Of a stretch of 64,000 nt of DNA, positions 15,618 through 60,399 are shown piece after piece. The position numbers and the translations under genes are program-made. The stretch spans positions 19,530,001-19,594,000 of the forward strand of contig OZ210885.1 in assembly GCA_964658305.1 (NCBI GenBank). Reading direction: 5' to 3'. Origin of the DNA: Leptogorgia sarmentosa. Lineage: Eukaryota. The first letter of the stretch is position 1; every line of letters starts with the position of its first letter. A model generated the notes under the pieces. The model was not told the DNA's origin. It did no database searches and saw only the letters and a program-made list of their open reading frames with translations.

Positions 15618-16054
15618 ACGCACGCTATGTGACAAGCTCCGCCGTTTTATGCATTTTACACCTCGAATATTGGTTGGTTGACGGTGAATAATATATCAAA
15701 AGATAGCTAAGGCTCTCCTGCATCGATTGGTGTATATTTCATCGACGACGGTCGAGAAGTTCGTATGTTACGAGGCGAAACGGGTCGGCAGCGAGTAGGT
15801 TTGTATACGGGTATCGAATTACACGTCGACAGCCAGCTTTGCGCCGTTGTTTCAGCACGATCCGCGGTTCAATCTCGACCTAGTACGCATCGTTGGAATC
15901 GGGAGCAAATTCCCTATCGAACGGTGGTATTTTCGGCGAGAACAGAGCAGCCTTCGCGAAGTTACGACCGATTATCAATTCGTAGCGCAGTATATGACGT
16001 CAGGTTTTATATTTACATGTATTCATCGCAAACGTCTGCCTAAGAATTATAGAT

Positions 16055-17224
16055 ATGGTGAGACAGAGGTCTCTAGAACTATCGCTGGAGGGATTACCGA
16101 CTGACGCCACCGTAGGTGGCCCAGTCGCCCTACGGCTCGCAATTTTCAACAGTCTACAGGATGCCGGAATTGGAACAGAAATGATCAAAGGGATAGAATG
16201 TTACAGTAAAACGATGTGGTACATTGTATTCAACAAACGCGCCAGCAGACAGAAATACCGGGAACAAAAGATTACACTGTTCGAGAAACAATTTGAACTA
16301 ACAGCAAATGACTACCGACCATCCAGACCGACGTACATCTTCGTACGCGCCTACGGCTACCCACTGGACGCGGACCGCGAAACCCTAATACAAACTCTGG
16401 GGTTATATGGCAACCTCCTCGAAGTCGTGGACGACATTGACGGGCAAATGGGCATCAAGACTGGTGTACGACATGCCAGATTCAGCAAACTGAACAAGAA
16501 CATTCCCTCATTTATCTACGCGGGCAAGTATCAAGTGAGAACGAGCTACCGCAACCAACCGCAAACATGTCACAACTGCCACCAAACAGGACACAACACG
16601 AAAGACTGCACGGCAGGGAAAGTGTGCAAGCAGTGCGGAAAACCTGGGCACACGAAATGCGACTGCCCAGAGCGCCGCTGTTTTTACTGCAAAGGGAAAG
16701 GCCACGAGCTTTTCCACTGCGATAAGTACGCGCAGGAATTTCCCGGCCTGGCAAACACCCAAGACGAAAGCAACGGCACGTCAGCAAATACAGCCGACCG
16801 CGAAACGAGCTCCCAAACGCAAAACGACCCCCAGACGCTAACACCCAACACCACACCTGCTGCAGAAACCGAGGGCCCCACCACGACGCAAAACCCGGCT
16901 CCAACGGAAATGGAGGTAGCCGACGCCAACGGCCCCTACAGCACAGAGGAGAAGGCCTCACCATTACCACCCCAGGAGAACCAGACCACCACGACCAGCG
17001 CCCAGGACTCCCCCACAGACACCGGGTCAACGGTCGAAGGCGATCCGCCGACAGAAATCCCCATGAACGAGGAACACAACCCACCAACCTTCCCACCACC
17101 GGGAGCCTCAGGCCCCTGGGGGGGGGGCAGCGAATACACTGAATGGAACTGGCATGACACCATAGAAATACATAGAAAGCATGATTTAAAAGAGCCAAAC
17201 GTATCTTGCCTAGTTGTCAAATAA
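16055..17224 (+). CDS. Tx1/L1-clade ORF1 (RRM-like region, tandem CCHC zinc knuckles, low-complexity tail); ORF2 absent
   Basis: 'YGYPLDAD...LGLYG...KTGVR...IPSFIY...YRNQPQTCHNCHQTGHNTKDC...CKQCGKPGHTKCDC...CFYCKGKGHELFHC'; C-terminus probably truncated near 17160. Confidence 0.82.
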   Translation: MVRQRSLELSLEGLPTDATVGGPVALRLAIFNSLQDAGIGTEMIKGIECYSKTMWYIVFNKRASRQKYREQKITLFEKQFELTANDYRPSRPTYIFVRAYGYPLDADRETLIQTLGLYGNLLEVVDDIDGQMGIKTGVRHARFSKLNKNIPSFIYAGKYQVRTSYRNQPQTCHNCHQTGHNTKDCTAGKVCKQCGKPGHTKCDCPERRCFYCKGKGHELFHCDKYAQEFPGLANTQDESNGTSANTADRETSSQTQNDPQTLTPNTTPAAETEGPTTTQNPAPTEMEVADANGPYSTEEKASPLPPQENQTTTTSAQDSPTDTGSTVEGDPPTEIPMNEEHNPPTFPPPGASGPWGGGSEYTEWNWHDTIEIHRKHDLKEPNVSCLVVK

Positions 17225-32286: not shown

Positions 32287-34656
32287 ATGTCTGCCGAAGA
32301 TAACTGCATTCGCTGCAAGGAGCCTGTAAGAGCTCGGCAACAGGGGCTGTTATGCGATTGCTGCGAAAGATGGCAACATCGGACCTGCAACAGTGGGATA
32401 TCGCTAAAAGCGTATCGAACCGCTGTTAGATGCGGTGAAGAAATTGACTGGTGTTGCGTAGACTTCTTGTTTGATTCTTGTTGCCTGCCGCAGAGAGCAC
32501 GAGACTGGTTCAAGAATGTGAGTATTCTACTCCATATAGCTGTATAGAAATGATTGATAATATAGAATAATATGAAAACTCAATAATTTAACTATTTGCA
32601 GCCGAACAAGAAGTAGATGAAGATTTAGTAAAGATGTTGGTCGACATGGCTGCTAGCGGTTCGGAAACTGACACACCCGAAGGAATGGACTGTGGCCCTC
32701 AAGGTATCAATTGCATTCGCCAGTCTTTTTTAGTGTAACTAAAAAATTGACGTCATGTATTGAGTACACGAAGTTATACTGATTGCACACAGTGCTTTAA
32801 AATAATAAGTACCTTTTTCGTTCAGAAATTCAGAATTGTCTGTCAAGATCTGTTGAGGCTCATAGTCTTCTAATGGAGGAAAATTTCAACGAAAGCATGC
32901 CTACTTTTGATGTTCTGGAACAGCTGACAGAATCGTCCATTGAAGACAACACGCCAAGACACTGGGAACATGATAATGCAACTACAGAGATAACATACCA
33001 ACTTATTGAAGATGGCTCGCAGAAAGGCAAAGAAAAGCTGGCAGACAGCCGAGGCTTCACGTACATCATTAAAGCGCAAAGAGTCAATGGCAATAAAGTT
33101 TGGAGGTGCAGCGTTAGGAACAAATCTGTATGGTGCAAAGCAATTGTATCACAAAAAGGTTCTGTCTTCACCCAGGGATCGCAGCCCCACACACAACCCG
33201 CCCAGCTTGGAGCAGCAGTTGCCACTAAAGTTGCAGCAGCGGCGAAGAAAATCACGGCCACTGAAATATTTACATCTGCCGCTGAAATAGTTAATAAGGT
33301 AATATGTTATTATTTTTTAATAAATTATTTCAATTGGGAGCTCATTATAAATCTTGGCTCCAGCAAATTCAAGCTTCATTTTAGGTAATTTTACTGATAC
33401 AGCGTTAAATCATTCATTGAATTTCCTTGTTAAAGCAAGTCTTTTAAATATTTTTTTAGGTAATGTTGGAACAGGGTGTGGTTACATCTAGTGAGCCATT
33501 GCCGGCATTGAGAAACCCAGAATACATTGCACGAGCAGCTAACCGTCACCGTCAACACATGCGACCAGCAGAGCCAACAGACTTAGAATTTGAAGTCAAC
33601 GAGGACCACATACCAGATGATTTTTTGAAGTCTGACATAAAGATCGATGGAAGGCGCCACTTGGTTTTTCCAACTGAAAACATGCTGAATTTACTGTCGA
33701 AGTCGAAGACATGGTATGTAGATGGGACTTTTAAAGTGGTAAAAGAACATTTTACGCAATTATTCACGATCCATTCGTTTGTGCGGAGTGGAGAATGCGT
33801 AAAGCAAGTGCCACTTGCATTCGTGTTGATGTCGGGCAAAAGACAACGGGACTACCGAAAAGTTCTGAAAGCAATAAAAGATCTAACGGGAAGCAGGAAA
33901 CTAGAAAAAATTATTCTCGACTTCGAGAATGCGGTATGGTGTGCAATTCCACAAGTGTTTCCAGGTGTCACGATTCGTGGCTGCTCTTTTCACTGGGCAC
34001 AGTGCATATGGAGGAAGATCCAGGATGTTGGTCTGGCCCCAGCCTATACAAACGATAACGCCACGCATAAACTATGCAGAAAGTTCCTTGCGCTGCCGTA
34101 CCTACCCAAGGAACATATATCAGCTATATTCGAGAAACTTGCGGCAAAGGCTACGTCTTCGCCAATGCTGATAGAACTCGTCAGGTATATTCGCACAAAC
34201 TGGATTGAAGGTAAAATAATGTAATTTTCGGGTAGTAAAACTCCCTTTCACTATGACTTTTGTCGCCGCTATATTTTTTAAACAGTAAAAAAATAACGTA
34301 TGTTCTGTTTATTTCTTGTTATTGAAGGTGAATTGTGGAAGCCGGAAACTTGGAGCGTGTTTTGTCAAGTTGTGAGAACCAACAACGACGTTGAAGGCTG
34401 GCATGGTATGCTAAATCGACATGCAAAGCGTGGGAACCTGAGCTTCTACTTGATGGTACGTCTTCTCCACGAGCAAGCACAGCTTGTCGCCATGCAAGTC
34501 CGGTTAGTGTCCGAGGAGAAGTTAAAGCGAAGACAAAGAAAAAAATATCGCCAGGTGCAAGGCAAACTTTTTGAGAATTGGTCGCAATATATAAATGGAG
34601 AGTTGTCAGCCATGAAGCTTTTGTCGAGATGCTCCTACCTCGCATCCCCAATCTAA
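32287..34656 (+). pseudogene. PHD-FLYWCH-MULE transposase, 5 exons (32287-32517, 32601-32703, 32826-33298, 33460-34210, 34328-34656)
   Basis: PHD 'CIRC...CDCCERWQHRTC', FLYWCH 'WRCSVRNKSVWC..H', DDE 'YVDGTF', 'LDFE', 'GCSFHW', 'RTNNDVEGWH'; GT-AG introns; one apparent frameshift near 32465. Confidence 0.88.
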
Positions 34657-36425: not shown

Positions 36426-36575
36426 ATGGCCGAACCCGTTGACGTCCCAGTCGTTTTGCCTGTACAAGTACCTGATGTCGCGCCAGAAGAAAATCCACCA
36501 GCCGTTGCAGCCGCACAGCACGATGATGAACCTCAAGTACAGCCTCAAGCGTTGCCTCAAGCGCAGCCCGCCGAG
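36426..36575 (+). CDS. Leader coding exon (50 codons, Pro/Val/Gln/Ala-rich) of element 1
   Basis: ATG at 36426; ends GAG|GTATGT (phase-0 donor at 36576); equivalent exon present in element 2. Confidence 0.7.
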
Positions 36576-37292
36576 GTATGTCGTTTTATACAGTGCCTTC
36601 AAACATTTTGAGATTTCTTTGGGGGCCATTCAGACTGACTGGCGTGAGTATCGTCTTTTTGGTTATTTTGTGTCTTACTTTTGAGATCAGCCTACCGCTT
36701 GCCTAGTTCTTAATCGTTCCGTTATTTGGGGCATTATTCTTGTCGCCCACCCAGTCATAGTTTTGGTTTGTGGGCCTTTGTAATTTTGGCTATTTACTAC
36801 GTTTATGAGGCCGGTTTCCGTGCTTGTTTCCCTGGTACCTTGTAGGCGTTGCTGCGCTGCGTGCTGCCAGCTTTTCTCGATCTTGTGTTGATTTGCTGAT
36901 TTTACAGAGCGATTTTTTCCCCAGTTTCGTACGACTGTTTGTCGCCAGTTATAATCAATGGTAATTATGGTATTTGTTTTATTTCCCTCCGGTAATCGTC
37001 GTTCATTCATTTAGGGTGTGTTCCCTTAATCCCGTATTTTACATAAGTGGCTTAGTTTCGTTATGCTTTGATGCACGCCCTGGTCATTTTAATACGGTAC
37101 AGCATTACAATCGTTCTTCGTTGCATTTATGTGCTAGGTTCATAGGTTTTATGTTTATGATTTAATCTCCCGCTATGGTTGGGCAAAGTTTTCCCGGTTT
37201 GATTGCATGGATGATGTTTGTTTTGCCTTAGACCTATAATTACTGGTGGTTTGATTTTACTTCCACTCTGGGGTCATTACTATAGCTTTTTC

Positions 37293-38141
37293 GGTTGAGG
37301 CCGACTTATCGTAGAGCATGGTTGGATGATTTGCTGTAGTCATTCAATTTCGATTCGGAAAGAAATGTTTTAGTTGAGGTCCAGTTATAATTATGTTTGA
37401 GGGTATGTTGTACATCAAGTATATTGGTTGGGGCCAATTCTAGTCCTGTACATATACGAGCAGGATGTGTTTGTTGATGCTACCTTACATATATAAAGGA
37501 ATGTCTATGTGGTGTCATTGGTTGCGGCCAATTTTAACTTTGTATAAACGTACGTCGCATTGTTTCACGGCGATTTATAGCCGCTGCGTGTCTGTACATG
37601 CGACAACCCCAGGATAGATATAGTATGATGCATTGGGTTCGCCCTATTTGCCAATGTATATGTCTAAACGTGTATGTGGTTGAGGCCAATTTATAATACG
37701 TGGTGGACATTGACTGTGTCGTTGAGACCGATTTACAATTCTGGTTAACAATACACCCTGCTGGTTGAGGCCAATTTGCGACTCGGTATGAGAATATCAT
37801 GTCTTAGTTGTAGCTACTTTACAACTTGGTCACTTCTGCATGACAATCAAACGTTGGTTGTGGCCAATTTCTAATGTTGGTTGAAGCGATACCCTGTATG
37901 TTCGGCCCAACTTGCGACTGTACGGAAATTATGTTTGTTGAGTGCAATTTACAGTGAACTGCGCGACAATCTGGTGAGTAGTGTCTAGATCTAGTGTCTA
38001 GTGGCCAATTTCAAGTCTATCTGACCGTCTAAAGTTTGGTTGTCGCCAACTGCATCTATGACCGGACGCATAATTTAGTGGTTGTGGCCAATTTCTGCCT
38101 TTTTATGCATGTAGCATACATGCACTCGTTGAGATCCGTTA
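37293..38141 (+). repeat. Array of about 19 copies of a ~15-nt repeat (GGTTGNGGCCAATTT) at about 43-nt period with divergent spacers, inside the putative intron 36576-38177
   Basis: Copies at 37293, 37372, 37426, 37472, 37520, 37635, 37678, 37720, 37763, 37806, 37856, 37899, 37936, 37997, 38038, 38080, 38127, plus weaker ones. Confidence 0.85.
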
Positions 38142-38177
38142 TGTGAATCTCGCTATAGTTTGGTTCTCGTGTTTTAG

Positions 38178-38693
38178 ATTGGAGAACAGTTACGATTGTT
38201 GAAAGAGGAAGTCCAGGCATTGCGTGCGAATCGTTCTCCACAAGATGGTGTTGATGCGGCGTTGCAATTTGTTCGCCAGCTGGCTTCATCACCTGTAACA
38301 TTGCGCGACCCAACCATGATTTCCGCCGCTCTTCAGACCTTAGCAGACCAGGCAAGGTGTGCCAGCCATCCAAAATCGGCTGAGTTTGAAGCCATACTAC
38401 GGCAAACGCGGCCATTACTTTATCGGCCTGAGTATGGCGATGTTATCATCAGATTGCTTGGCACAAAGGAGTAGACGGCCGTTGCGGCAACTATCGCCAA
38501 GATGACAAAGAACCTGACTTCCAATCGTCAACCTCCCGCCCACTCATATCGTCGCCAGTTTCGAGGTCGAGGGTCAGGTTGGCGTTTTGGTCGTGATCGT
38601 ACTGGGGCTAATCGTGCAACATTACTTTGTTTTCATTGTGGCCGTCCTGGTCATTTTCAGAGACATTGCCCCGATAAAAATTCTACAGCTTAA
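38178..38693 (+). pseudogene. gag-like exon of element 1 with CCHC knuckle (premature TAG at 38472-38474)
   Basis: Acceptor GTTTTAG|ATT; 'IGEQLRLLKEEVQALR...', 'CFHCGRPGHFQRHC'. Confidence 0.8.
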
Positions 38694-38987: not shown

Positions 38988-41230
38988 GGTCTCCCCGCTC
39001 CTAAGCGCCAAAGAACAGATAAACGGAAGGCCTTTTTCCGCGGACATCACCCGAGGCCGAATATACAATGGTGTGATTGGCAAGGCTCGCCTGTGTCTTT
39101 CGTCGGCCCCAGACCCCCTCCGCTGATGGTTTCACGGGGTCAGGTTTTGGCCAGCCCACGAGACGTCATTTTCCGCAACCCTTCTTCGTTTGTTCCTGGG
39201 AATTGCACAACCATTATAACGAATGGGAACAGATTGTTCCTGTAGGTGAGGCGGAAGAAGTCCTCTCCTTTATTCGCCATGGGGTAGATGTGTGGCAGTA
39301 TTTCCACCCATTTAAGGGGAAGTTTGCGGGGCAACGTTATGATTCGGCCTATCCACCCTCTTGGGAATTCCCAAATAGCCCCTCTTGTGAGCGTTTCACA
39401 GTTTTTGTCCATTCAACTATCCAGGAGAGAGTCCGCACTGGATCTTTGATATTTTGGGGGTTTGTTGGTGAAGTGCAGCCCCCACATTTGGTCATGCCTA
39501 TCACCGTTGAACCGACAAAGCCGCGCATGTGCCATGACGAGCGGTTCCTTAACCTTTGGATTCGCGATCTACCATTTACTTTAGATTATTTATCTGACTT
39601 ACCACGATATGTTGGTCGTGGCCATTTTCAGACGGTTTGTGATGACAAGAGTGGCTATGACCATTTAATGCTTACCCCATCTAGTAGAACAATGTTTGGT
39701 CTGCGTTGGGATGGTTGTTATTTCGTTTATGCCTCCTTACCGTTCGGCTGGAAGGCAAGTGCATATGTGTACCATTCCACCGGTTTGGTGGCCACCAGCT
39801 ATATTCGTACATTAAACGTCCCTTGCAGTCAATACATTGACGATAGACATAATGGTCAACTGGTTTGTCCATCTAGTGGCACCTGGTCTGATTTTGAACG
39901 AGCCGAAGCAGCGGCTTATATTGTTACCGCCGTACTCACAATCCTCGGTTATACCATCGCTCTCACGAAATCATCCTTGATACCTTCCCAGTGCGTACGT
40001 TTCTTGGGTTATTTGTCAAATTCTCTACTCATGGCGTTCGTTTTGCCCGACGATAAGAAACAGAAATTTCGAATATTAAGGGAGGTTATTTTATCTCAAG
40101 AGGAAGTCGGCCTTCAGATGTTGCAGCGGTTCGCGGGCAAAACAACATCTTTTTCTATCGCAGTCCCAGCTGCCCAATTGTACACTCGGGTCAATTATCG
40201 TGCTATTGGGTCGCATCAGACGCGGTTAGGCGGGTCAATTCCGGTTACCGGCGAGTTACGTGATCAGATTGCATTTTGGCGATTCCTGGATACCTGGGAG
40301 GGGCATCTTCCGTGGTTTGACGAGAGACACTACGTACTTAAATTTTTTGCGGATGCCTCAAACTCGGGTTGGGGAGGAGTTCTTTGTCCACTCGGTGGCG
40401 AACATTCTACACTTCGCGATTATTGGGAGCCAACTCATCAGCCCAAGCCTATGGTTGTCAAAGAGGCTCTTGCCCTCCTGAAAACCCTTTCTGTTGCGGC
40501 TCAGTCTTGGTCTAATTGCCACGTCGATGCACATTCGGACAGCTTGACATTTGTTAAGGCCTGGAAGAACCAAGGGAGCAAGAGTGCCGACCTCACTTCG
40601 GTCATTCAGTCTATCTTCGAGTTGTCACTCCGCGCCAATATTAGCCTCACTCTCTACCACGTGCCATCCAAGGCAAACTTAGCAGATGCTCCGTCTCGAG
40701 TTTTGTCCATGGCCGACTGCATGCTTGCTGAGCACGCGTGGCAAGATTTGCAGCGTCGTTGGGGACCTCATACGGTCGATCTTATGTCCCTGGATTCCAA
40801 CGTGCATACAGGTCTTGACGGCTTGCCACTACGTCATTTCTCCCCTTGGCCGACGCCCGACTCTGCGGGCGTTAATCTGTTCGCTCAATCGCTTGATGGC
40901 ACAGAAAATGCCTATGTGTTCCCCCCGTTGCCGGTCATTGGCCCTGTCCTTCGCTTCCTGTTCTCTGGTAAATGCAGCTTTACTGTTGTTCTCCCTGACC
41001 TCTTTCCACGACGCTTTTGGTGGCCCTTGATGCATGGACGTGCCCTGGATAAGTTTCGATTAGAAGGCAAAGGTCAATCCGGTATTCTCCTCTTCCCCAC
41101 GCGAGCAGGTAATTTCGAGGATAAACCTCTGGAATGGGATCTTTGGGCGTTTCGGGTGCAAATTGTTCTCTCCATTTCCCAACCTCCGCTTCCTTGTTTA
41201 GGGAGTTCCTCGGTTATGGCGACCAGCTAA
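38988..41230 (+). pseudogene. pol of element 1: RT, RNase H and Dam-like methyltransferase domain (one frameshift near 39198)
   Basis: 'DDKSGYDH', 'LPFGW', 'YIDD', 'FADASNSGWGG', 'NLADAPSR', 'VDLMSLDSN...GVNLFAQ...YVFPP'. Confidence 0.92.
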
Positions 41231-42514
41231 GACGTGTAGAGAATGCCATTACCTGAATGACGATTGCGCTGTGTTTTGTCAAAGATGTGGCGTCCAGCAG
41301 CTCTCGACCGCCGTCGGCACACCCGGTCTGCCTTCATCTACTAAAACAGTGAGACCCGATATCACGATGATAGACAAGCGTATCTCTGAACTTCAGCAGG
41401 CAAGGACTTCGACGCCTTATGGGCGTCAAAAATCGCAGCTGGGGGTTGAATCGCAGGCGTTTCTTGCCTCCTTATCCCCTTCTAAAACATCTCTCTCGTC
41501 TACACCACAGGATGTGGTCCGGTTCCTAGTATGGAAGGACCAAAAAGGACGAACAAAGGTTCACCAGCAGCACTGCCAATTCATTGGTTCTCGCGCCAAA
41601 TGCCTATGTGATTGCCGCGGGGACTGTCGATTCTACTATTGGCAAACTTCGAGCTATATTTAATAGCCTGGGTCGTTCGGGTGGGGGCAATCCTGCTGCA
41701 CACTTCACGGTTACACAATACCTCAAGTCTATTCAAACAACAAGCTGCAGCTAGGATTTCTCCTCGCCAGGCTACATCACTCTTTTTTGACAAATTTCGT
41801 CTGATCATCCTTCACTTGCGCTCTCTTCTTTGCAATTCCACATCGTCAGCTATCGATAAGTATATTTATGCCCGTGATCTGACATTTTTTACTCTTGAGT
41901 TTTATACCGGTCAGCGCGCCTCGGACCTTGGCAGACTAAAAACAGTTGACATTTCACAGAATCCGGACGGCCGCAGTTTGCTTATTCACCAACGAGTCGG
42001 GAAAACTCTCCGAGGAAGTCGTTCGAGGCCAATTCCCATCCGCCCGTTAGCGAATCCCGCCTTCTGCCCTGTCGCAAATTTAACATTCTACCGTACACTT
42101 TGCACCGCAATGCGAATTGATTTGGGTGTTGGTTTCCTCTTTCGCACAACATCACATCGTGTGTCGGTTTCTAGTTCCCCGTTTTTGGTGTCGGCGGCAC
42201 AAGCTCGGTTGGTGTCATATTTGAAGTCGCTGGGGCTCTACACTAACGAGACTGTGCACGGTTTCCGGGGGGGTACCGCTCTGCTGCTCAAGATGCTTGG
42301 TGCCTCAAGTGACGATATTGCACGCCACATAGGATGGTGCTCAACTGCCATGGTGGATCATTACACACAAGTTGATAAGGTTTCCGCGATCCTAGACACG
42401 GGCGATAAACTTGGGGATAGTATTCTTTCCCGTGCGGGGCAGGTTCCAGCCCAGGTCTTGGGACGTCGATTTACCGAATGTAATAATTTAACGGGTTTCG
42501 AACCGTTTTTCTAG
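41202..42514 (+). pseudogene. Tyrosine recombinase of element 1 with N-terminal C4 zinc ribbon (frameshifted at about 41610-41730)
   Basis: 'CRECHYLND...FCQRCG', 'GQRASDLG', 'GKTLRG', 'HGFRGG', 'HIGW', 'DHY'. Confidence 0.9.
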
Positions 42515-44430: not shown

Positions 44431-47400
44431 GTATATTTTCTATATTTTATTGAACACTTGTTTATGGCTTTTTAATGATATGCTAATGCAATGAAGAACA
44501 GGAAATCTGAATTGAATTCTAAAATTCAGCTCATTTTCAACCAATGGGAATAAGATCACCTGTTAAACTCGTTCGTATTGACCATATTTATATTTCTGTT
44601 TTTTTACCGTTAATTTAGGGAACGGTCAAATATATGTTTCTGCCAAAAAGACGTCAATAGGACGTCTCTTACAAAACCCCCTCCCAAAGACATCAGGCTC
44701 CAATAGCGGATAATTTGTACGACTTTATCTCCACATTTCTCAAGACTCCAATACTGAGAGTGGTCACGTTTATTAAAAATATAAATGTATTTCCCACCTA
44801 TTTATATTCCTACGTGTATAATCATAATCACTCGATTATTGTCTGACTATAGACAGTAACTGCAAAAAGTAACACAATTGTGATCAATTAACTTGACAAA
44901 AAATGGACTCATATCTATCAAATACATTCTTCACAGTAGAATTTGTTATTAATCGGTACTTCTTATCTTATTCCGATACAAAAAATGTGGAACCATTTGA
45001 AACAGCTGTCACAGGAGACCTATCCAATAGTATCATCATCAATGTCTTCGTTGTCCAGTTAATTTTCTGGTGGGTCAATCTGTTTGCATATCTCCCAAAC
45101 TTCTTCATTTTCATTCGCTTCAGCTTTCTCATTGGAATCACTTTGATCTACGTCATTAGGCTTTTCGGGAATTGATGAGTTAGCATAGGCTACTCGTTTA
45201 GGAGCTAGGAAGGTTTCCATTCTTGCTTGTTCAGAATTTTGGCTATCTAGCTTATTTTTGCTCTGTCTTGCCCTCTTGCGACTGTCATAGATCTTGTGAT
45301 TCATGAGATCTTTGTGTTGCAGGAGTTGGCGGCATGACTGAAAAGAAAGCCCACAGTCCTTGTAAGTGCACTCGTACCTATTTTCCAGCTGTTTTCGAGA
45401 TGCATTTTGCAACGTCTTGGTTTTGGATCTTTTTGGGTGAAAGAATCTGCAATGTTTTTCTTTTTCTGTTTTTGATGAAAATGACCATGCAGGACAAACT
45501 TCACATCTTCCTAAGATTTCAGTTTTTTGTGCTTCTATTTTCATCTTCTGTGATTTTTAAAGGGCAGAAAGTTTCTTGTAGTTTTAGATGTTCTTTCTCT
45601 ATTTCTACCATTTCCAAAAATGTTTTGTAAGATCCATGAATTAGCTCACTAGGTTCTGGATCAAAAATGCCGTGGGTTGTAATAAAATTCCAGAATTGTT
45701 TTGCACTCACTGGATGGTGGTTGCAATGTTTGCAATTGTTACACTTGCTAATTATTATTTCATACTTTCTACGATCTACGTGCTTTAGTGCCTCTTTAAA
45801 TTCTTCATGAATGGCAACATGGGGACCTGACAAATTTCTGGAAGTTGTCAATTTACTGTAAGCATGAACAGAATGAAAGGTGCAATTTGTATGTTGTAAA
45901 CCTGTCGGAATGTTCACTGCCACAACAGGCCAGCATCCATCGAATGCCAGCTTTTTCCAGTAAACGTTAGCAACCTTATCCAGCTCTCTGTCAAAAACCT
46001 CTATCTCTTTTTTCTTTACTTCTTCGGGTGCCAGCCAAACCAGAAATAAAAACTGGAGGCTTGTCATCACCATTTGCTACCGGTTTCCCTCGAACATCTG
46101 TTAATGCCTTTGACAGAAGAGACCATAAATGCTCTATTGAATTGTAAGCAGAGTAACCAGGTGTATATGATGTAACGATTAGTGCATCTTCGTGTTCTTT
46201 CCAAAGGCGATAATAGTAGAGCAAATTTTGATAATGTTGAGGGTTTCTATCAGGACCTCGGTCAGTGATCACAATCACAACTTTCTTTCCTGTAGTGTAT
46301 TTGCATATTAGAATACAAAATTAATCTAGATAGTATGAATATGTAGCATAGTTAATTAATGTGGTCTTATTGTTTGTCTGTCATCTGCTTGTGGAATACT
46401 GAAAAGCTTAGTTAAAAGTATAAATCGAATCCAGTGCAATCTGCAATTTATTTAGTGTTAGAACACTACATTTCCGTCTTTTATAGCTCTTTTGATAATA
46501 GGTTCAATGTCCTCATTATGAGTCTCCATGTTAACTTTTGGTGCTTTGTTGCTCTTATATAGACGTGGGCTGGTCCAGTATGAGGGGTTTTCAGATGCGG
46601 TCTACCGTGCTTGTCTTTAACAAGCGCTGATGATTCAAAACCCTTTTCCATCAAATTTTCATCAATTGTTTCTCTAGCATTTTCAACATTTCACTCCACT
46701 TTCATGATAATGCAGTCGATAACTTCAGTTAATACGTTTTGTCTGAATATATCATCTACATTACAAAGTTCTTCATCAAAACTTGTTGATTGTTTATAAA
46801 TCTCAATAAAGTTTACCTCTGAAGTATTCAGAGTAAAATTGTTTTTGAATCTAAGTTCCATCAAACCACTTGGTTTTCCTAAATATCCTGGGACTGGAAA
46901 GTCATGGTCTTCATGATCCGGGAAATTGTCTACTGGGTATAGTTGATTATTCTGATGGTAGCGACTCACCATTGTGTAGCTGCTCAATCTCAACTGATTC
47001 ATACAATGTACAGATAGAACCAAAACCTCATCATTGAACATTGATGCCATTTTTCTTTGGTATTTAAGAGATCGTCTCTGTAAAAACCGTCCACAGGTTA
47101 CAGGAATAAAAATATAACAATCCTTTATTTTTTGTCAAATAAAAGGTATTCCAGCCTGATAAAGTGATTCAGGTTTGTTTTTGCAAAACAGTCTTTTGTT
47201 TCGGTTTTAGAGCGCATTCAGTATGCCTACTATTCACTGCTGGTAATGCCGCCATTTTACCGCCTAATTTTAGCAAAATTTTGAAGGAGCTATTATCACT
47301 CAAGGAATTATCCTCAAATTGTGCCATAGATTTTTCCGACCATTCAGAACATTGCTAACAAAAACTGATATGAATAAAGAAATCTGTCACATTTGTTTCA

Positions 47401-47968
47401 TTTTTAACACGAAATAAAAATCAGTGGTTGACCCACGATGGATATCAAGTCAAATTTGTACACTGAAAATAAGGTCATTTTTCTGGAAAGTGGATCGTTG
47501 ACAGTTCATTATTGCTCTTGCACGGTACTAAGTACACCTATATCTATTAAAATCTGCTGATAAAGTTTGTGGTCAAGCTTTTATTTAGTGGCCAGGAATC
47601 TATAAAGATGTCCCTAATTACGGCTTATGCGTGCGCCATTTGCAAAATAGTGTAACAGTGTCATCGTTTTGTAATGCCTCATTAAACGCAAAGAATATCG
47701 TTCAGACAACCGAAAAATAATCGGAATTGTAATGAAGACAATTAAACGTTAGAAACGTACGAAACGAAACGTACCTTGCTTTTTTCGATTCAATAAACTT
47801 GTTTTGATCCTATGCAGTTTCAGTGCAATTTAACTATAGCTTGCTGAAGAGAGAATCTAATTGTCGCAGGTCCATTGATCGATTTACTCATTTTTAAAGA
47901 ATACCACATAGCTACTTCTGCCGCGAAGATTGCAGTCACAGTTAGGTCAACGTGGTAATGCACTTTCC

Positions 47969-49173: not shown

Positions 49174-51939
49174 TGGTGCTGATAAAAGTTAACTTCAAAA
49201 AGTTGGCTAGAAGTGTGTGAAACATTGTAATATTATTGTTCGTTGTTCGTTCGTACTTATTGTTTACATACACGTAGCTATACATGAAATTGACATGTTC
49301 TGAGAGTGAGGATATTCCGGTTTTAATAAAACTAGTCCGATCAGAATGTTGTTTCCCTAGAATTGTTTAACGATTCTGTTACTGTTTTCCAGTCAAAGTG
49401 CAAGACACAAAATCATCTCGGTTCTTTTCTTGTTCTGCAACAGCTACATCTTCAATCCAGCAGTCCATCTCTTGACTTTCTACATCAATGTGATCGCTTG
49501 ATTGTAATATCTGCTGTTTTCGTCGTGCAGCGAGAAGGCGTGAAAAAACCCCCTTAATTTGCAACTTATTCAACCACTGTTCTCTTTGGAAAGCCCGTGT
49601 TCCGTCTACGTTTTTGGCACGCCTTATATCTAGCGAGACCTGTTGTGGATCTGCTTTGATTCCTGATATCTCACCGATGTCAAATTTAGCTGTTAGATAA
49701 CGACGTGTTACATCAGGGAACTTCTTAGGCGCTTCTCTCGCTGGTTGGAGGGCCCATCCCATTGATACTTTGGGAGCACCTTTGTCACCGACCTTCTGGG
49801 CCGAATCCATTCTTGGCAAATTTTCACCAGAAATTGTCGAGAATTTATGAGCCCATTGCCGCCATAGCCCATCGAAAAAGCTTTCATTGTCAGAGGTTGT
49901 TTCAAAATGTTTCCCCAGAGAAACATGCATTTCCAAATCATCCAAGGTGTCGAATGACTTAAGGCAATTTTGCTCCATGCACACAAAGGTACCATTCCCT
50001 TCACCCTCGTCGTGATTTTCAGAATGTTTTTTGCCTGCTTTTAGTGTTCTTGGTTGTCCAGGAAGGAAAAAATCCTCTCCGTCGCGTACCACCAAACCAC
50101 AAGCCTTCTGACTGGTAATACATAACTTGTCATATGGAATCAACTTTCCAGTTCCAACTGTGAAAGCTTTACACATTCTTACACCATCCAATTCAAATTT
50201 GAAGTTGTGAAAAGCACTAAAGTTAGAAATAGTTTTCATATTTAAGGTTTTATTATTGACATCAACTTGACAAACTGATGCGGTAGATCCTCGCACTGGC
50301 CTCTCCTTCAACGCTTCTCTCATATGTGCTGCGCAAACAATATCGTGTCCTTCGTTGCAATAGGTTTTCAGTGAGTTTTTCATGGGACATAAAATTCTAT
50401 CACATACATGTTTCCCGTGCTGTGGTTCAGAAAAATCGTACGCGTGCACTGTTAAACCTGCCCTCTTTCCAATATCACTAACACTTGCTATTAGGTTGTT
50501 GTTATGGTAACAACCGGCTTCGTCTGAACGCAAATACACGTTCTCAATTGATATTTGGGTTCATTTTCACGATGTTATGGAAAAGATTTTCCAGGATAGA
50601 TGACACTGCAAACCAATCCTGGACGCATCGGGCCTGTGAAAACTCGTAACACATTTCATGTTTCTGTTCCTCATTGTAGAGATGGGATGAAAGCGTTTGA
50701 ATCATGCTCTAAATGTTACTAAGTGTTGTTTTTAGTGCTTCACAGTCCTCACATATAACATCGTGTTGGTGATCACACTTCTCTTGAAATTCAGGATTAT
50801 CTGCATCACTCAAAGAGAATTTTCGGCAGTGGTCACCACACCGGCTTGTTGGCTCTCCACAATGAGCAATGTATTCAGTTTTTAAATAACACTTTGACTT
50901 TCTAAGCTGCTTTTTACAATTTTCAGCCCATTCTTTTTCGATGCCAGATTTCTACAGCTCCTGCAAAATTTCTTCAATCGCGTCAAAAGCAGCAGCTCCA
51001 TCAGAAGCAGTATTGTCCAATCCCTGCAGCGACTTTCTCTGAGAGGCTTCCCTAACTTCAAGTATTCTATATAGGGTTGCTCTACTAAGTGGCTCGAAGT
51101 TTTCGTCTTTGCAGTGATGCATATATTGAGAAATCATGGTCGATCGTGTGACGGTCCAAACAACATTGGGCATAGAAATACACTCACCGCTGTCGAGTTT
51201 TAGTTTCCTTGTTCCAAAGTACACATCCTGGTAAAAATACAGACGATTGACAAACTCAACAAAGTGATCAACCTTGAAAGTATCGATTCTAACTCTGTGG
51301 CGTGCTTGCTTTTCTAGAGGCATGCCTGCCCCAAATTGCTTGCAATGGGCATGTGCTTTTTTTACTCGCCATGATGTTATACGTTCGTAAGGCTCGTGTA
51401 TTTCAATCAGTTTTTTTGCAGAAAATCTGTAGCAATACAAGCTAAGAATCTGAGTTTTTAGTTTCCTCGTTGGTGCTTCTCTGTGAGCAGTCATTAACGC
51501 AGCCAGCTCACTGCTAACCAACGGCTTTTGCCAAGCGCCTACTTCTTCAAACAATGTTTCGCTGTCATTTGGTGCAATTACTTCGCAAACCATTCGACAG
51601 GCTTGACTAGCTTTAGCAATGCATTTCTCCTTGGTCATTTTTGTTGTTTCAGACAAAGGAATACACAATCTAGAACTTACGGGTGAAAACTTTGCTGTTG
51701 ATGTGGATCCTGAGAGTTGGGAAAAGCAATCGTTGAATATATTTAAAACTCCTTTGTCACTTGAGAGTACACTTTCTTTATCCGACTCGGTGGATTCCTC
51801 TTCTTCCACCCACTCTGCAAGGACACTTTGCCTTTCTCTCCTCGTACGTGCAGGGGAAGGGGACTGGAGTGACTCGTGTATTGCCAAATTGGCACATGTT
51901 TTTGCAGCCCTATGCGGGAAAAAAATTATACCATGTGGT

Positions 51940-52300
51940 TTAATTGCTGCCGAGCGTAGCGAGGCAGCACACTATTCTTGACACGCGGTGGTTTCCCCAG
52001 AGTCTACTCGACCCAGTCTTTCGCGCGAGTTATGTATTGCCGAGATCGAGATCTTGTGTCTGTCTGTCTGTCTGTCCATAAAGATGTTTGTCGTATCCGG
52101 GGGCATAATTAAGCTTCAGGGACGTTTGTTAAAAGAGGGGAGCGGTCAGAATAATTAAGCTTCAAGTACGTAGCGCGCGCACACGGCACGCATCTCCATG
52201 TGCGTCAAGAATCGAAAGGTTTTTACAAAAGCGTTTCATACAGATGCAAGATTTTGCTAATGTTTTATGCGTTGTGGTTGGCCCAGGTTGGGTAATTTGG
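51940..52300 (+). mobile_element. HINE/DINE-1-like (Helentron-associated) element in a Sola3 intron; right boundary uncertain
   Basis: 5' hairpin TGCTGCCGAGCGTAGCGAGGCAGCA and (GTCT)n microsatellite at about 52057-52077. Confidence 0.45.
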
Positions 52301-53976
52301 TATTTATGGCGATCACACATCAATGATGCAAGCAATGTTCAGAATGCTAGCTCTAATAGACTGTTAGGGTTAGTGTTTACTATGCTATTACTAATAGTAT
52401 AGTAAACACTAACCCTAACAGTAAACCTTCACCCTAACTGGCGTGCTGTTGCTTTTCAAAGAACGGGACATAAACACAATATGCGCACTGAATCGCATTT
52501 TTAATTATTATGTTGAGCTTGCGATTAAATAACGAGATATAAACGTGGTAAACTTAATCGGTAATAATTTTCACTTCGTATGATCGTACACGAAGAACGA
52601 AGGCTGTCACACGCTGCTTTCTGAATACTCGGGTATATCACATTTCACTTCGTGTCATCGTATTACGAAAAAATGTATCTTGCCCAGGCTTTTTAAAAAC
52701 TCGGATACATTACATTACGTGATCATTTTGACTTCGTATCATCGTATCATGATAACAAGTCACTGTTTCAAAAGTGGACAGGTATTCTATAACCCAGCCG
52801 GGATTTTAAAGTTTGAGCGCAACGCCAGCACATTTCCTTGCGATAGTAACTCCTTGTATATCATTATTTTATACAATCTACAGACCCAATTGTTTTTGAA
52901 CAGTCAATTGTTTTTACTCGTTTCTAGGCACTTTCTTCCTTGAATTTGATTAATTTTTTGTGACATTAATTTTTTGATGACCTTACCGACGTTCAAGTCG
53001 TGAGTCAATAGCAACTTCCTCGACCTCATTCGACTCAGGTACCTGCTCTTCTGCTTTGATTGGATGCAGCCATTTCTCCCTTGAGATAATTCGTTTCTGC
53101 TTTTTCCTACATGTGCTACAAATACCTACAGATCAATAAAGACAATTTACATCCCTGATATTTATTCCTAAATGACTGGCGTATAACGAGGAAGGCAAAC
53201 CTAAAAGCCTCAAGTGATTTGCTCTACCCATAGGGAGACAACTATCCTCAGCTACAAACATAACATAGGTGAGTATTTGTGTGCTGGAAAGTCAAAATGA
53301 ATGAACTTAAAGGCAAGTGCCAAGGGCAACTATAGCATACAGACCCTCAAAGGACTAAGGTAGTTGGTAATGAAAACATTCACCACACACTAGACCGTGC
53401 AATCAAGATTAATCGGAATTCCTTTTGACAATAGTAATATATTCATAGCGGACCCCTTTCCACACAATGCTCTGGGCCCAGGGCGAGAGGTTGAAAGGTG
53501 GTCGTGTGTCGCAGATGAGGGGAGGTGGGTGGGTTGATTTCTCGTGTTATTAGCCTCCTTCTAGCGGGAACACCGTGAAATGGCGAAAAACTGTGCTGAA
53601 TGTCGCCTTTTATATGATTTTCTCGGTCGTTTATTATTGTTACGTCATATGCTAATGTTTACACTTGAAATACTTAGTTAATTACATGCGCTCAGGCAAA
53701 ATGCGGAAATGGCTCCACTGTGAATAGTAATATATTCATAGCGGACCCCTTTCCACACAATGCTCTGGGCGAGGGTGTATTAAGATTGGGGTAACACGCG
53801 AATTTGTAACCCTCGGCAATAGTTATACTCAGGCTGATACCCATCCCAATACCCCTGAACACACTAGATTAAACTGCAAACACGCCGCTTTCTCCAAAAC
53901 TCAGAAAACCAAGCAAAAAAAAAACACAGAAATGAATAAACTTTATTAAAGTATGATGTAGCGGAAAGCGCGAAAA

Positions 53977-54896
53977 TTATGTGAATGCGGGTTTGAAATC
54001 TTGAAGGTAGTTACGTGTTTGGAATTGTTGTCCCAAACGCGCTGCCTCTGGTGGTGCGTGTGGGGATGGTGAAGAAACGCCTTTCGCCATGACGCCGGCT
54101 ACTTTTGTAATGTTCATTACTCTGTCCGTCTGCGAGTAGTATACAGCGATTTGAGGGTTCTTCCAACCAACGTGTTGTGCGATCTCCTGTGTTGAGACGC
54201 TTAGAAGAGACAGCGTGATGGAGCATCCCGAGCGAAAGCTGTGCATTGTTTCGCCTTCGTGGAGCCCGCAGGCAGTTAGGTGTTTTTTGAGAGCGTGGGC
54301 GACAGCGGAGCGTTGAAATGGGGCGTTTATGACGCATCCTCGATTGTTCGTGGGGCGGAATAAATATCCCTGGTTGAGGTGAATGCCCATTCTTTTAGAT
54401 AGAGTAACGTAGAGTCGGAGATTTGTCACCGGACAGACCGCTTGGTTTGCGCACTCTTTAAGGGCAAACACGTTTTCTCCCTGGCCGCGAAGGGTTTTGC
54501 CAAACGTTTGGCGGAAGAGGAGACCGTTGCCTTCGGGGAGTTGCAAAATTTCACAAGTTTTAATTCTACCTAGATCAGATGCCCGATCACCGGAAAAAAA
54601 AAAAATCGACACACACAAAAGCTAGGTCTCGGAAAAATCGGTAACGCTCTACGGGACTAAGTGAAGGCGTGAGAGCGTAGGTAGCGACATAAGGTTTCGA
54701 ATTTATTGAACAGGATTGGCTTTGCTTGTTTAGGTGTCACTTTAGCTTGTGTCTGCTCCTCTCGAATCGACATAAGGTAGTGTTTCAAGACGGGGTGAGT
54801 CGCAGGATTTCCGCTTCCGAGTGAGTCGTGTGTGCCTGAACGGCCGACGGCGGTAAAAAATGCACGCAACTTTCCAATATAACTGTCCACTGTTCT
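53977..54896 (-). pseudogene. Tyrosine recombinase (C-terminal part) of element 2
   Basis: 'TVDSYIGKLRAFF', 'SGDRASDLG', 'GKTLRG', 'HSFRSG', 'HVGW', 'YYSQ'; homologous to the YR of element 1. Confidence 0.9.
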
Positions 54897-54919
54897 CCCG
54901 CAGGGAATTGTCAGGTGTG

Positions 54920-55960
54920 AGGTGAAATTCTATAGCAATACCATCACACAATAGCTATAAACATGAATGAATTCTAATAGATGCCGTCACATAGCAGCAA
55001 TTAAATGTGAGTAAATTCTATGTAACACTTTGATCCATAACGAGACCGTCGCACAGCAGTTATTGAACGTGAGTAAAATTTGTTCTGCGATAAAGGCGAG
55101 ATACAGCTGCCATTTAGTGTGAGTAAATTCTACAGTAAAGTCGTCACATAACAGCATTTAAGGTTGGGTAAACGGCCCGATAAATCCGACAGTATGATGC
55201 CGTCACACAGCAGTCAATAAATATGAGCAAATTATATAGATATGTCATATGTGGTCACCCAGCAAACATATAAACATGAGTAAATCGATTCTATATCAGT
55301 GCTGTCACACAGCAGCCATCAAAGGTGAATGAATCTTGTAGTGTCGTCACGCAGCAGTCGTCAAAAGTGAGTAGAAATCTCATAATTATGCCGTCACACA
55401 GCAGCGATTTTGAGGAAATTATGATATTGCTGTTACGTAGCAACCAGTTATACGAAAAATAAAATGGATATCTAAATGTCAGTGCCGTCACACAGCAGCC
55501 ATCAAAAGTGAGTAGAACTCATAATGCCGTCACACAGCAGCGATTTTGAGGAAATTATGATATTGCTGTTACGTAGCAACCAGTTAGACGAAAATAAAAT
55601 TGATATCTAAATCAGTGCCGTCACACAGCAGCCATCAAAAGTGAGTAGAACTCATAATGCCGTCACACAGCAGCGATTTTGAGTAAATTATAATATTGCT
55701 GTTACATAGCAAACAGACGAAAATAAAATTGATATCTAAGTATCAGTGCCGTCACACAGCAGCCATCAAAAGTGAGTAAATCTTGTAGTGCCGTCACACA
55801 GCAGCCATTTTGTGAGTAAATTCTATAGTAATATTGTCACACTGCAGCCATTTAATGTGAGTTGAGTTAATTCTATATAGTATAGTGCCGTCACACAGCA
55901 GCCATGGGTAATGAATAAGTTCTATAATAATGCGGTCACACAGAGGTGTGAGTAAACTGT
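54920..55960 (-). repeat. Array of about 22 degenerate units (modal period about 43 nt; core TGCTGTGTGACGGCA on the sense strand) with a higher-order triplication of about 133 bp
   Basis: GCCGTCACACAGCAGC...GTGAGTAAA recurs at e.g. 54983, 55199, 55390, 55484, 55526, 55617, 55659, 55748, 55790, 55887. Confidence 0.9.
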
Positions 55961-56744
55961 ACGAGTAGGCTAATGCCACATCGGCAACATTTGTTCAAAG
56001 GGTATGCAGATTGAGACAGGCTGGGAGCGCGCGAGGTAAGATGGCTGATTCTTCGGTACGAATGAAACTGAACCGAGCTGGAGGAAAGACATGATAAGAT
56101 CCAGTTAAAGGTACCATGATAACAAAATACATAGTATAGATAACAATTCGCAATACAAATAGACAAGAATATGCTACGGCTAAAATAGCAGCGGCGCGGC
56201 CGGACACTATCATATGGTAGGGGAATACAACTAATACTAAATAGGCATGCAGTGACAAAACTGGAAAGTAACCCAACCCGGGGCATTATCCAGTCTGTAA
56301 GCCGAAATGAACCCCCTGAACAAACGAGAAACTCCGTCGAAGACAGTGTATAAGGCGTATTTAGAAAGCCCCTCTCATTGAAAAAGAGAAAACTTAACGA
56401 CACCTAACAGCCAGGATAAATAAAAGGAGAGATATGAACGAAGCCCGGGGGAAATATCCAGCCTAATGCAAGCGAAATGAAACTCCGAGGAGTAGGACTA
56501 TTGCCGACGACAGAAAGCGTACTAAGAAATACCCTTAGGTGACCAGAGTAAATAAGTGAAAATACTGAAGACAAACAACCGCCTGGATATGTGAGGTATA
56601 CTATAACGGTGCTAGGATACATAGGCGACTGCATTGATGATAGACAAGACAAAGACGAATACCGTTCCTAATTGCAGCTAGCAAACCGATGGCGAAAGCC
56701 AGGTATGAACATGGAGGCTATAAAGATGAAAGTAAAAAACCAAC

Positions 56745-56918
56745 CCGTGGTTGTGGGCCAGCTGGTGGCAAGACGGCTAGAGCGGCTGGTTGTTCGGCAA
56801 CCGGTTGAGGATTGTTATCAATCGGGTTCATATTAGCTTCGGGTTGTGCGGCTGCGAGTTCTTCAATGACTTGCAAGACATCAACTTGTTGAGGTTGAAC
56901 AGGAGGTTGGTCTGCCAT
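56745..56918 (-). CDS. Leader coding exon (58 codons, Pro/Gln/Ala-rich) of element 2
   Basis: 'MADQPPVQPQQVDV...PPAGPQPR', then a phase-0 GTTGGT donor and pyrimidine-rich non-coding sequence; same position as the leader of element 1. Confidence 0.6.
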
Positions 56919-58203
56919 GGCGGTTTACTGTGGCTCAGCTGCGACACACAGCATGTCCAGAACTTCTCGTGTTATTAGCCTCCTTCTAGCGGGAACACAG
57001 TGAAATGGCGAAAAACTGTGCAGAATGTCGCCTTTTATATGATTTTCTCGGTCGTTTATTATTGTTACGTCATATGCTAATGTTTACACTTGAAATACTT
57101 AGTTAATTACATGCGCTCAGGCAAAATGCGGAAATGGCTCCACTGTGAATAGTTCTTCATCCTGTGCTGTGATAATGTGATTTGCCAATGTTTTCAATCA
57201 CAATGTCGACATACTTCCGCGATCCAACTGCAATATGCGTCCGGTACAACTGCATCACGGTTTCTGCCATTACTGTTCCAACAGTCCCTCGGTCTTTAAC
57301 TTGCTTCGCCTTTCCAGTATGTGCAGGGTACTGGCAAGACCAGAATTTGCCAAGAGAATGTCTATAGCCAGGACAAATCCACATTTTTGCTATCTGATTT
57401 GCTGAGACTGTGTAGAATCCTGCTCGAGCAAGAATTAATTCATATTCCACAAGTTGTACCGACCCTAAGTGACACGATGACAAGATGATTTCTGATGTCA
57501 TCTTTACAGTCAATAAGTTGATATAATGCATAATTTCCCCAGGATTCACCACAAGTACCTTGACATTTCCCTTCTAAAAAGCAAGCCACCATCGTTGTTT
57601 CTTAAATAAATCTATGAATCAATTTGATGAATATAACTAACCAAGCAATGACCTAACCGGAAACGTGTGTGCAATACTAATTCGGTAAATTAAAACCTAA
57701 TAATATAAATTTTGAAGCAAACTATTAACGATTATAGTTTTTTTGAGTCTCCAATTTTTGCATTGGTGTTGCACTTTAGACTGCAAAACAGTAACAGAAT
57801 CGCTAAACGATTCTAGGGAACAAGATTTTGATCGGACTAGTTTTATCAAAACTGGAATATCTGCACACCTCAGAACATGTCAATTTAATGTATAGCTACG
57901 CGTATGTAAACAATAAGTACGAACGAACAACGAACAATAATATTACAATGTTTCACACATTTCTAGCAAACTTTTTGAAGTTAACTTTTATCAGCACCAC
58001 TTTGATTACAAATGTGTAGTATTCGGTATTCCTTGAAAATGAGTAAATCAGCAAATGGATCAAGTTGTGAAGTACTCGGTAAGTGGCAGCTCATGGTAGG
58101 CAATTGCACTGAAACTGCATATAAGATCAAAACAAGTTTATATTGAATCGACAAAAGCAAGGTACGTTTTGTTTTCTAACGTTTAATTGTCTCAATTACA
58201 ATT

Positions 58204-58709: not shown

Positions 58710-60399
58710 AATTCCGGTTATTTTTCGGTTGTCTGAATGATATCTTTCCGTTTAATGAGGCATTACAAAACGATGACACTGTTACACTATTTTGCAAATG
58801 GCGCGCACATAAGCCGTAATTAGGGACATCTTTATAGATTCCTGGCCACTAAATAAAAGCTTGACCACAAACTTTATCAGCGTATTTTAGTAGATATAGG
58901 CGTACTTAGTACCGTGCAAGAGCAATAATGAACTGTCAACGATCCACTTTCCAGAAAAATGACCCTATTTTCAGTGTACAAATTTGACTTGATATCCATC
59001 ATGGTCAACCACTGATTTTTATTTCGTGTTAAAAATGAAACAAATGTGACAGATTTCTTTATTCATATCAGTTTTTGTTAGCAATGTTCTGAATGGTCGG
59101 AAAAACCTATGGCACAATTTGAGGATAATTCCTTGAGTGATAATAGCTCCTTCAAAATTTTGCTAAAATTAGGCGGTAAAATGGCGGCATTACCAGCAGT
59201 GAATAGTAGGCATACTGAATGCGCTCTAAAACCGAAACAAAAGACTGTTTTGCAAAAACAAACCTGAATCACTTTATCAGGCTGGAATACCTTCTATTTG
59301 ACAAAAAATAAAGGATTGTTATATTTTTATTCGTATGACATGTGGGCGGTTTTTACAGAGACGGTCTCTTAACTTGACTAAAAAGATAATGCGCATCTCC
59401 ATGCGTTTTTCTGATGTTGTTTCTCTTTTTTGGCACCCTCGCTTCGACATAGCCTTTGTAGAGTTGGCTACTTGTTGCAGCTTTATTTGGGGCACAAAAC
59501 ATATATCTAACAGTGTTTATCGACAATCAATTTTCCCACAGTCCCGGAACTACAGTAAGTAGGTGGTTGTAAACGTCTTCAATCGAGACCCCAGCAGACA
59601 CTGCAGTCGATTCTCTTCTCCTGCTGTGAGCTGAATAACCATGTAATCTTATAAACTTCGTGTCCTATTCGACCATTTGAGTGAATTTACGAATTAGCGG
59701 TTTCCTTCCTCTTACATTGTATGGTCCAAAGGCTGGTTTTTTTGCAATGGGAGCATTTTCGGATGGAACAGGAACCTTTTTTGCCACTTTAGGAGACTCG
59801 TCATACAGCCCAATCTGCCAGATATTTATTATATTTGTGTTCTCATTATCGTCCGGATCATTAAAAAACTGCAGTACTTCAGTCACAAACTCCTTTTTTA
59901 GCTGTGATGTAATGCCCATCTGAGACATCAACAGGTCAACTGGCACTGAACTACAGCCTTCCAGTAGATGAGCCGATCATCTGGCCAACATCAAGTGAAG
60001 TTAGAGCCTCTGGAGCATGAACCGATTCAACTAAATTGGTGAAAGCATCTTCCCAGGTAAGGGAGACATCATTCATGCATTCAAAACTGGTTTTATTCGA
60101 CTTAAACTGAAGCATCACATACAAGTCTGATTTATTCTGCACTTAATATCCTGCAGAAGCTTTTTGTTTCATAGCAACTAGAAGACGTCTTAACACTCTG
60201 TTTTGCTTCCACATTTGCTGCAAGTTTTTCATAGCTGAGAGAAGCGGTTATGGCAATGGAACTTGCAGTCTGAAAAAGCGAGGCAATTTGTTTTTCCTGC
60301 TTTTGTATATCGAAAAGGCTTTCTTTTAACTTCGATTTTGCCTTAAACCATATACCTGTCTTTGTATAGGTTTCCTTTAGGATAGAGAACTCATGACAA

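Follow-up and report, generated by a model that had tools for sequence, protein, structure and literature searches.

Sequence-divergent tandem arrays of small hairpins in the predicted gag intron of PAT-like retroelements: a candidate packaging signal on unspliced RNA

The window analysed here, that is, the whole stretch of 64,000 nucleotides of Leptogorgia sarmentosa DNA (assembly GCA_964658305.1, contig OZ210885.1, forward-strand positions 19,530,001 to 19,594,000), holds two PAT-like retroelements, each of which carries, downstream of a short predicted leader exon, a tandem array of short self-complementary units. The two arrays are unrelated in sequence, as a first-pass annotation of this DNA had stated and as blastn bears out (best matches 10 nt, E 0.68), and Rfam covariance models gave no match on either array at E values up to 1 and none at the gathering score in five loci. 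This raises the question of what such an array would do for the element, and whether its position and form reflect, as that annotation proposed, a family-wide architecture with family-specific sequence.

The PAT-like element type is already known. Named homologues of these elements come mostly from corals and anemones, the viral collections scanned contained no relatives, and the tyrosine recombinase has the orientation of the element in both cases (PF00589 in both; PF04852, ALOG, in element 1). Element 1, on the forward strand, has a predicted leader exon (36426..36575, +) of 50 codons that starts with ATG and ends at a GAG/GT donor. The gag frame is taken up again in phase at 38178, directly behind a pyrimidine tract and TAG, by a second exon (38178..38693, +) that has no start codon of its own and contains one in-frame stop. 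The array of about 16 units (37290..38095, +), with the core UUGGU-UGAG-GCCAA, lies inside the predicted gag intron between them (36576-38177). Gag exon 2 encodes one CCHC zinc knuckle, which is also present in most relatives (PF00098 on 4 of 18 homologues) and is deleted in element 2. Broken pol and ALOG-recombinase frames follow (39077..42514, +); pol itself has no Pfam match, PF00078 (reverse transcriptase) being found on most of its homologues, and a putative methyltransferase domain, recognised by its motifs, lies after the RT/RNase H part, in a region that element 2 has lost. The element 1 core was also considered as an NFI site and rejected, being one base too short against the consensus. 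No split direct repeats were found for element 1.

Element 2 runs on the reverse strand from 57153 to 53430, with its repeats in the order A1, then B1, A2, a 61-nt spacer and B2. It fits the echinoderm-form Pat1-like PAT elements of the order DIRS, as these are defined in the available text of PMC4157794: split direct repeats A1...B1-A2-B2, with the internal repeats 3' of the recombinase, are found here and in the relatives L077 and L081. A1, at the 5' end (56964..57153, -), is identical to A2 at 188 of 190 positions, and the 3' repeats (53430..53770, -) comprise B1 (53723-53770), A2 (53539-53728), the spacer and B2 (53430-53477); the 6-nt overlap of B1 and A2 recurs at either end of the element. 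A strong hairpin with its centre at the B1/A2 junction is predicted (53693..53766, -; -36.5 kcal/mol, z -7.04); it has the 6-nt crossover core in or beside its loop and may be the recombinase site, usable on single-stranded cDNA. The corresponding folds in relatives, each the best of 29 windows, have z values of -5.3 (L081, near 7001), -6.7 (L053, near 11293) and -2.5 (L077, near 6174), and of 0.2 in L004, where the position of the junction was guessed. Between 16 nt of the A2-B2 spacer (53504-53519) and the part of the leader that immediately follows A1 (56934-56949) there is 94% complementarity, so that the two RNA ends could pair; the same leader stretch is also similar to the array core.

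Within these repeats, the predicted leader exon of element 2 (56745..56918, -) consists of an ATG, 58 codons rich in Pro, Ala and Gln, and a weak phase-0 donor, CGG/GT, that falls below the donor threshold of our scan of relatives. The array had been placed in the distal part of a non-coding region after this exon; the location stands, and by analogy with element 1 and the relatives the region is better read as the 5' part of a predicted gag intron (54920..56744, -) whose acceptor went with the internal deletion. The junction of that deletion, placed approximately at 54905..54925 (-) by comparing the translation with the recombinase alignment, joins the array to the middle of the ALOG domain. 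The deletion took the 3' end of the intron, the second gag exon, pol and the first part of the recombinase frame, in line with the reported loss of gag and pol. What remains of the ALOG and tyrosine recombinase frame (53977..54905, -; PF00589, E 2.1e-06) contains two frameshifts. Element 2 is a dead, internally deleted copy that still shows its family's array. Two pairs of long inverted repeats, one nested within the other, surround it, 47064-47728 / 58710-59372 (665 nt, 97%) and 49174-49406 / 57766-57999 (235 nt, 92%); these are likely to be DNA transposons, and further ORFs occupy 49379-51971 (-). Other mobile-element remains in the window are a zinc-knuckle ORF that by eye resembles LINE ORF1 (15998-17224, +), a DUF1758/protease region (3988-6108, -) and a MULE transposase (33460-34224, +).

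The element 2 array (54920..55965, -, the sense strand) consists of 22 units, each with a self-complementary 15-nt core and a second conserved word, UUUACUCAC, which lies 11-20 nt before the core and had gone unnoticed. The first-pass estimate of about 22 units is confirmed: the best 500-nt pair score stands at z = 28 against 60 shuffles, and one 12-mer occurs 20 times, compared with at most 7 times in 8 shuffles. The count includes a unit at 55108 and falls to 16 once a triplicated block is collapsed. This three-unit block of 133 nt (55340..55812, -; TRF period 133, 3.5 copies) agrees with the triplication of about 133 bp described before, and it is largely responsible for the modal spacing: the proposed mode of 42-43 nt holds in that 42 nt is the commonest value (5 times), but three of those five involve the triplicated block, and the spacing has a median of 47 nt and a range of 39-62 nt. 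Both the core, UGCUG-UGUGA-CGGCA, and its pairing-compatible CAGCA variant (55300-55314) were found as described. The 5-bp stem-loop drawn for it needs revision, since the canonical unit is instead predicted to form a 6-bp stem with a GUG loop and a short lower stem (-8.2 kcal/mol, z -1.73, compared with -1.6 for the antisense strand). Three variant units have predicted folds at z -1.02, -0.54 and -0.24, and the stretches of array on either side of the triplication give folds that are no more stable than those of shuffled sequence (z +2.09 and +0.31).

The presence of the array in a copy without gag and pol had been offered as a sign of function, with a mobilised, multi-copy deleted form as a possible background. 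Copies of element 2 were judged from the contigs of four sequencing runs (X1, X4, X5 and X6) at an identity threshold of 85%. In X1, which may be the source sample, depth is 101-110 inside the element and 208 in the left flank, an empty site is present at depth 99.6 (joint 53429 to 57148, with 6 letters that fit either side), one unbranched contig crosses the deletion junction, and all 23 records are at least 95% alike. The half depth, the empty site and the absence of anything less than 95% alike point to a single heterozygous insertion in this run; no other copy of at least 85% identity was found there, and a multi-copy deleted form was not recovered. Because the copy is single and heterozygous in X1 and the deletion adjoins the array, its retention carries no weight as functional evidence. 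The other three runs, at depth 3-7 and with no contig spanning the deletion junction, are too thin to judge copy number; they contain a second haplotype, about 97% alike and with a different 3' joint, which is likely to be another insertion, and contigs of X4 and X5 match the 53977..54905 remnant without differences. The triplication is polymorphic, as two of the 133-nt blocks are missing from an allele in X4, where 16 letters separate the joined positions 55458 and 55742. Contigs of X4 and X6 also join the A2-B2 spacer to a longer B and then A (53476-53805; joint 53805 to 53476), which would represent either a member of the family whose B2 is longer or the junction of a circle or tandem.

The context of the arrays can be followed beyond the window. 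A pol alignment provided 80 metagenome loci (the best 80 of 213) and 4 genome loci. Four of the resulting elements (L081, L082, L083 and L084) lie in contigs of bacterial metagenome-assembled genomes, most likely as animal host DNA binned with bacteria. A leader exon of the same make was found in 13 of the 32 rows with enough upstream DNA, and 11 of these end in GAG/GT, donors being counted at codon boundaries only. Gag frames, judged by eye, mostly lack an ATG and open behind a pyrimidine tract and YAG. For pol frames, the best acceptor is in phase 0 in 45 of the 63 loci that have one (71 examined), and in 35 of 71 loci the stop that opens the pol frame is a TAG preceded by a pyrimidine tract, as opposed to 19 of 148 in other frames (p 2e-8, for loci that are not independent). 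Recombinase frames follow suit, with a phase-0 best acceptor in 28 of 37 (45 examined). Phase-0 acceptors at gag, pol and recombinase starts occur in the window, at 38178 and 41202, as well as in relatives from L003 to L084. From these splice signals we infer that one leader exon would be spliced to three acceptors, those of gag, pol and the recombinase; with frames mostly starting at phase-0 acceptors, spliced mRNAs would drop the array. The N-terminus encoded by the leader exon is absent from all 18 gag homologue proteins, most of which look like unspliced gene calls and are hence uninformative.

For the spread of arrays, the 41 of 84 loci with at least 1500 nt upstream of pol were grouped into 24 families at 80% nucleotide identity. 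By hand tally, a clear array precedes gag exon 2 in 15 families, weak repeats are found in three (L039, L055 and L080), and six (L052, L053, L054, L058, L060 and L061) have none; of these six, four group together as a single side branch in the pol tree (support 92/96), the trees containing no named reference elements. In L052, L060 and L061 the upstream region is short or rearranged; L054 and L058 have the intron signals and no array. None of the 41 downstream control stretches rises above z 3.4, and over 483,656 nt scanned, TRF arrays with a period of at least 18 fall, with few exceptions, in the zone upstream of gag exon 2. One locus, L063, has the same 26-nt array twice, at 435-979 and 5267-5687, about 4.8 kb apart, which suggests tandem or nested elements. 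The proposal of a family-wide architecture with family-specific sequence is therefore upheld in position, by the 15 arrayed families and the quiet controls, but not in dimensions. Periods are 24-26, 27-31, 44-49, 58-67 or about 143 nt, and unit numbers range from about 4 to more than 40 and differ within families too, in arrays of up to 1.5 kb; the match between elements 1 and 2 in a period near 43 nt and in copy number does not generalise, and a conserved 43-nt period was rejected. The element 2 motif, though unrelated to that of element 1, is not unique in the clade, sharing 10 of 15 core letters with L008.

Self-complementarity recurs among these motifs. The best stem exceeds the mean of 1000 column permutations in 14 of 14 arrays (individually at p < 0.05 in 6; p 6e-7 when combined by Fisher's method), a G-N-G lies in the script-chosen loop in 8 of 14 arrays, compared with 2.39 expected (p 4e-4), leaving six without it. 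Substitution is lower in cores than in spacers for 9 of 10 arrays, with p < 0.05 in 6 of them, and for 10 of 10 when G/C columns are compared. These p-values overstate independence, since the families share ancestry, and the cores used for covariation, for part of the loop and stem comparison and for the substitution tests were picked by eye. Between families, stems change on both sides and still pair: the sister families of element 1 and L022 (support 100/99) differ by a two-sided change, U-A against C-G, that keeps pairing, and element 2 and L008, its closest family by recombinase identity (~52%), differ by one swapped pair, C-G for G-C. L084, L057 and L005 have a five-base loop similar to that of element 2 on other stems. 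Reassigning arms between families gave 22/25 and 24/25 pairs against means of 13-14, a result that shows only that arms differ between families, because the arms had been chosen to pair.

Within arrays, on the other hand, no covariation was found. Over 16 arrays there were 15 two-sided changes compared with 14.3 expected, and changes to G-U equalled changes to A-C (60:60); in element 2 alone, 3 pairs covaried vs 2.1 expected, and 181 of 500 shuffles scored as high. Predicted pairing in context is low, at about 0.2, and 6 of 14 arrays have no sense-strand helix above the cut-off. The sense strand folds better than the antisense in 13 of 16 arrays, which we do not count, since G/U-rich strands do so anyway. 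As to the co-evolution of repeat and Gag that the first-pass annotation had in mind, element 2 has lost gag exon 2, gag knuckles are by eye about equally alike whether or not the array loops match, and a recurring loop on changing stems would suit one reader common to all families no less than a separate pair in each. The arrays are real, clade-wide and probably functional.

As to what that function would be, the reading we prefer, at somewhat less than an even chance, is that the array is a multi-copy packaging signal on unspliced RNA, in which Gag, through its single zinc knuckle, would bind the G-N-G loops. It draws on the position of the array, the recurring loop, the Gag knuckle and retroviral precedent. 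If the leader exon is joined to each of the three acceptors, every mRNA would lose the array, and the unspliced RNA alone would keep it and so be tagged for packaging and replication; many weak sites could compensate for a Gag with one knuckle, and duplication and loss of units would renew the stems completely from family to family and spare the loop. In retroviral packaging signals such as HIV-1 SD/Psi and the UCUG of MoMuLV, as presented in the available text of PMC7599994, unspliced RNA is likewise selected, knuckles bind an exposed G and sites are many. In HIV-1, NC binds a G that is exposed in loops of the sequence GGUG or GGAG, and over two dozen sites for NC lie in the packaging signal (PMC7599994, same text). 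The single-knuckle NC of MoMuLV bound the UCUG linker and not isolated hairpins (PMC7599994, in the part available), which weakens the retroviral analogy. Retroviral signals are also folded, single-copy leaders, whereas the arrays of PAT-like elements are 4 to more than 40 weak tandem units extending up to 1.5 kb. Counting against the packaging reading are the lack of covariation within arrays, the weak predicted folding and pairing, the six arrayless families, the intron signals without an array in L054 and L058, and the 6 of 14 loops that have no G-N-G.

Several of these points bear on other explanations as well. The array might act on unspliced RNA through a different reader: a protein of the host or of the element could prevent splicing, or export the RNA with its intron, as Rev/RRE and CTE do for retroviruses. 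Such a reader would draw on the same position and the same conservation as packaging would, the element must in any case keep an intron that its mRNAs remove, and the second conserved word of the element 2 units, UUUACUCAC, which resembles a branch point and is complementary to a donor consensus, would find a place in it. We nevertheless think it unlikely; the second word was not seen in the motifs of other families, and L054 and L058 have intron signals and no array. The arrays could also be a by-product, units being duplicated by slippage of reverse transcriptase or polymerase at small hairpins, with the intron as the sole tolerant place. Hairpin slippage alone would account for self-complementary units, and it agrees with the absence of covariation within arrays, with the parity of G-U and A-C changes, with the wide variation in period and copy number, with array lengths that differ between individuals, and with the six families that have no array. 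It sits poorly with cores that are less substituted than spacers in spite of being rich in CpG, with G-N-G loops that recur across families on different stems, and with the degenerate arrays of elements 1 and 2, in which the core is kept while spacer length varies; we regard a purely passive origin as improbable.

A protein might instead recognise the units as DNA. We hold it to be quite improbable that they are double-stranded sites, formed by short inverted half-sites, for a host or element DNA-binding protein in the manner of VANC, even though the available text of PMC5735166 describes VANC motifs in the VANDAL transposons of Arabidopsis as family-specific, fast-turning tandem arrays in non-coding regions, introns included, much like those of PAT-like elements. 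Equal numbers of G-U and A-C changes are also as DNA sites would have it, and the element itself encodes an ALOG domain. On the other hand, the unpaired centre is kept while the arms change, and we would expect a dimeric DNA binder to keep the arms; the dyad is interrupted in elements 1 and 2 by U-G pairs of the consensus; and the canonical element 2 unit folds on the sense strand only. VANDAL is moreover a DNA transposon with a non-palindromic DNA motif bound by an anti-silencing protein (PMC5735166, same text), whereas PAT-like elements are retroelements with self-complementary cores and a recurring loop.

With regard to earlier work, no intronic hairpin array in DIRS or PAT elements was found in the literature searched, which covered sources other than subscription papers, so that a prior mention is possible. 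In the algal PAT elements TOC1 and kangaroo, tandem arrays of 76 and 89 bp separate the first ORF from the terminal repeat, with units that are longer and more uniform than those described here. Algal PAT Gag of the TOC1/kangaroo type is without a zinc finger (PMC4157794, in the text available). For Pat1-like elements, a gag intron or an intronic hairpin array goes without mention in the available text of PMC4157794, and that of PMC3266345 has no instance of "tandem", "intron" or "splic". How tyrosine-recombinase retrotransposons select genomic RNA is a subject that the searched literature does not address, and "packag" is absent from the available text of the experimental DIRS-1 replication paper PMC7192593.

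Together, these observations lead us to propose, as a tentative model that we put below even probability, that this clade separates messenger from genome by splicing: gag, pol and recombinase would share one leader exon and skip one intron, in which a multivalent array of G-N-G hairpins would be the packaging signal, its stems changed from family to family by tandem turnover and its loop preserved. Should the arrays be neutral, these introns would be a recurring source of minisatellites. Retroelements whose intron survives reverse transcription need a means to favour their unspliced RNA, and the array is a short and mutable candidate for this role. If the model is right, the array would be the first packaging signal defined for the order DIRS, and one of array type, and the approximately 15 natural variants with different stems would provide ready material for exchanging Gag and array between families.
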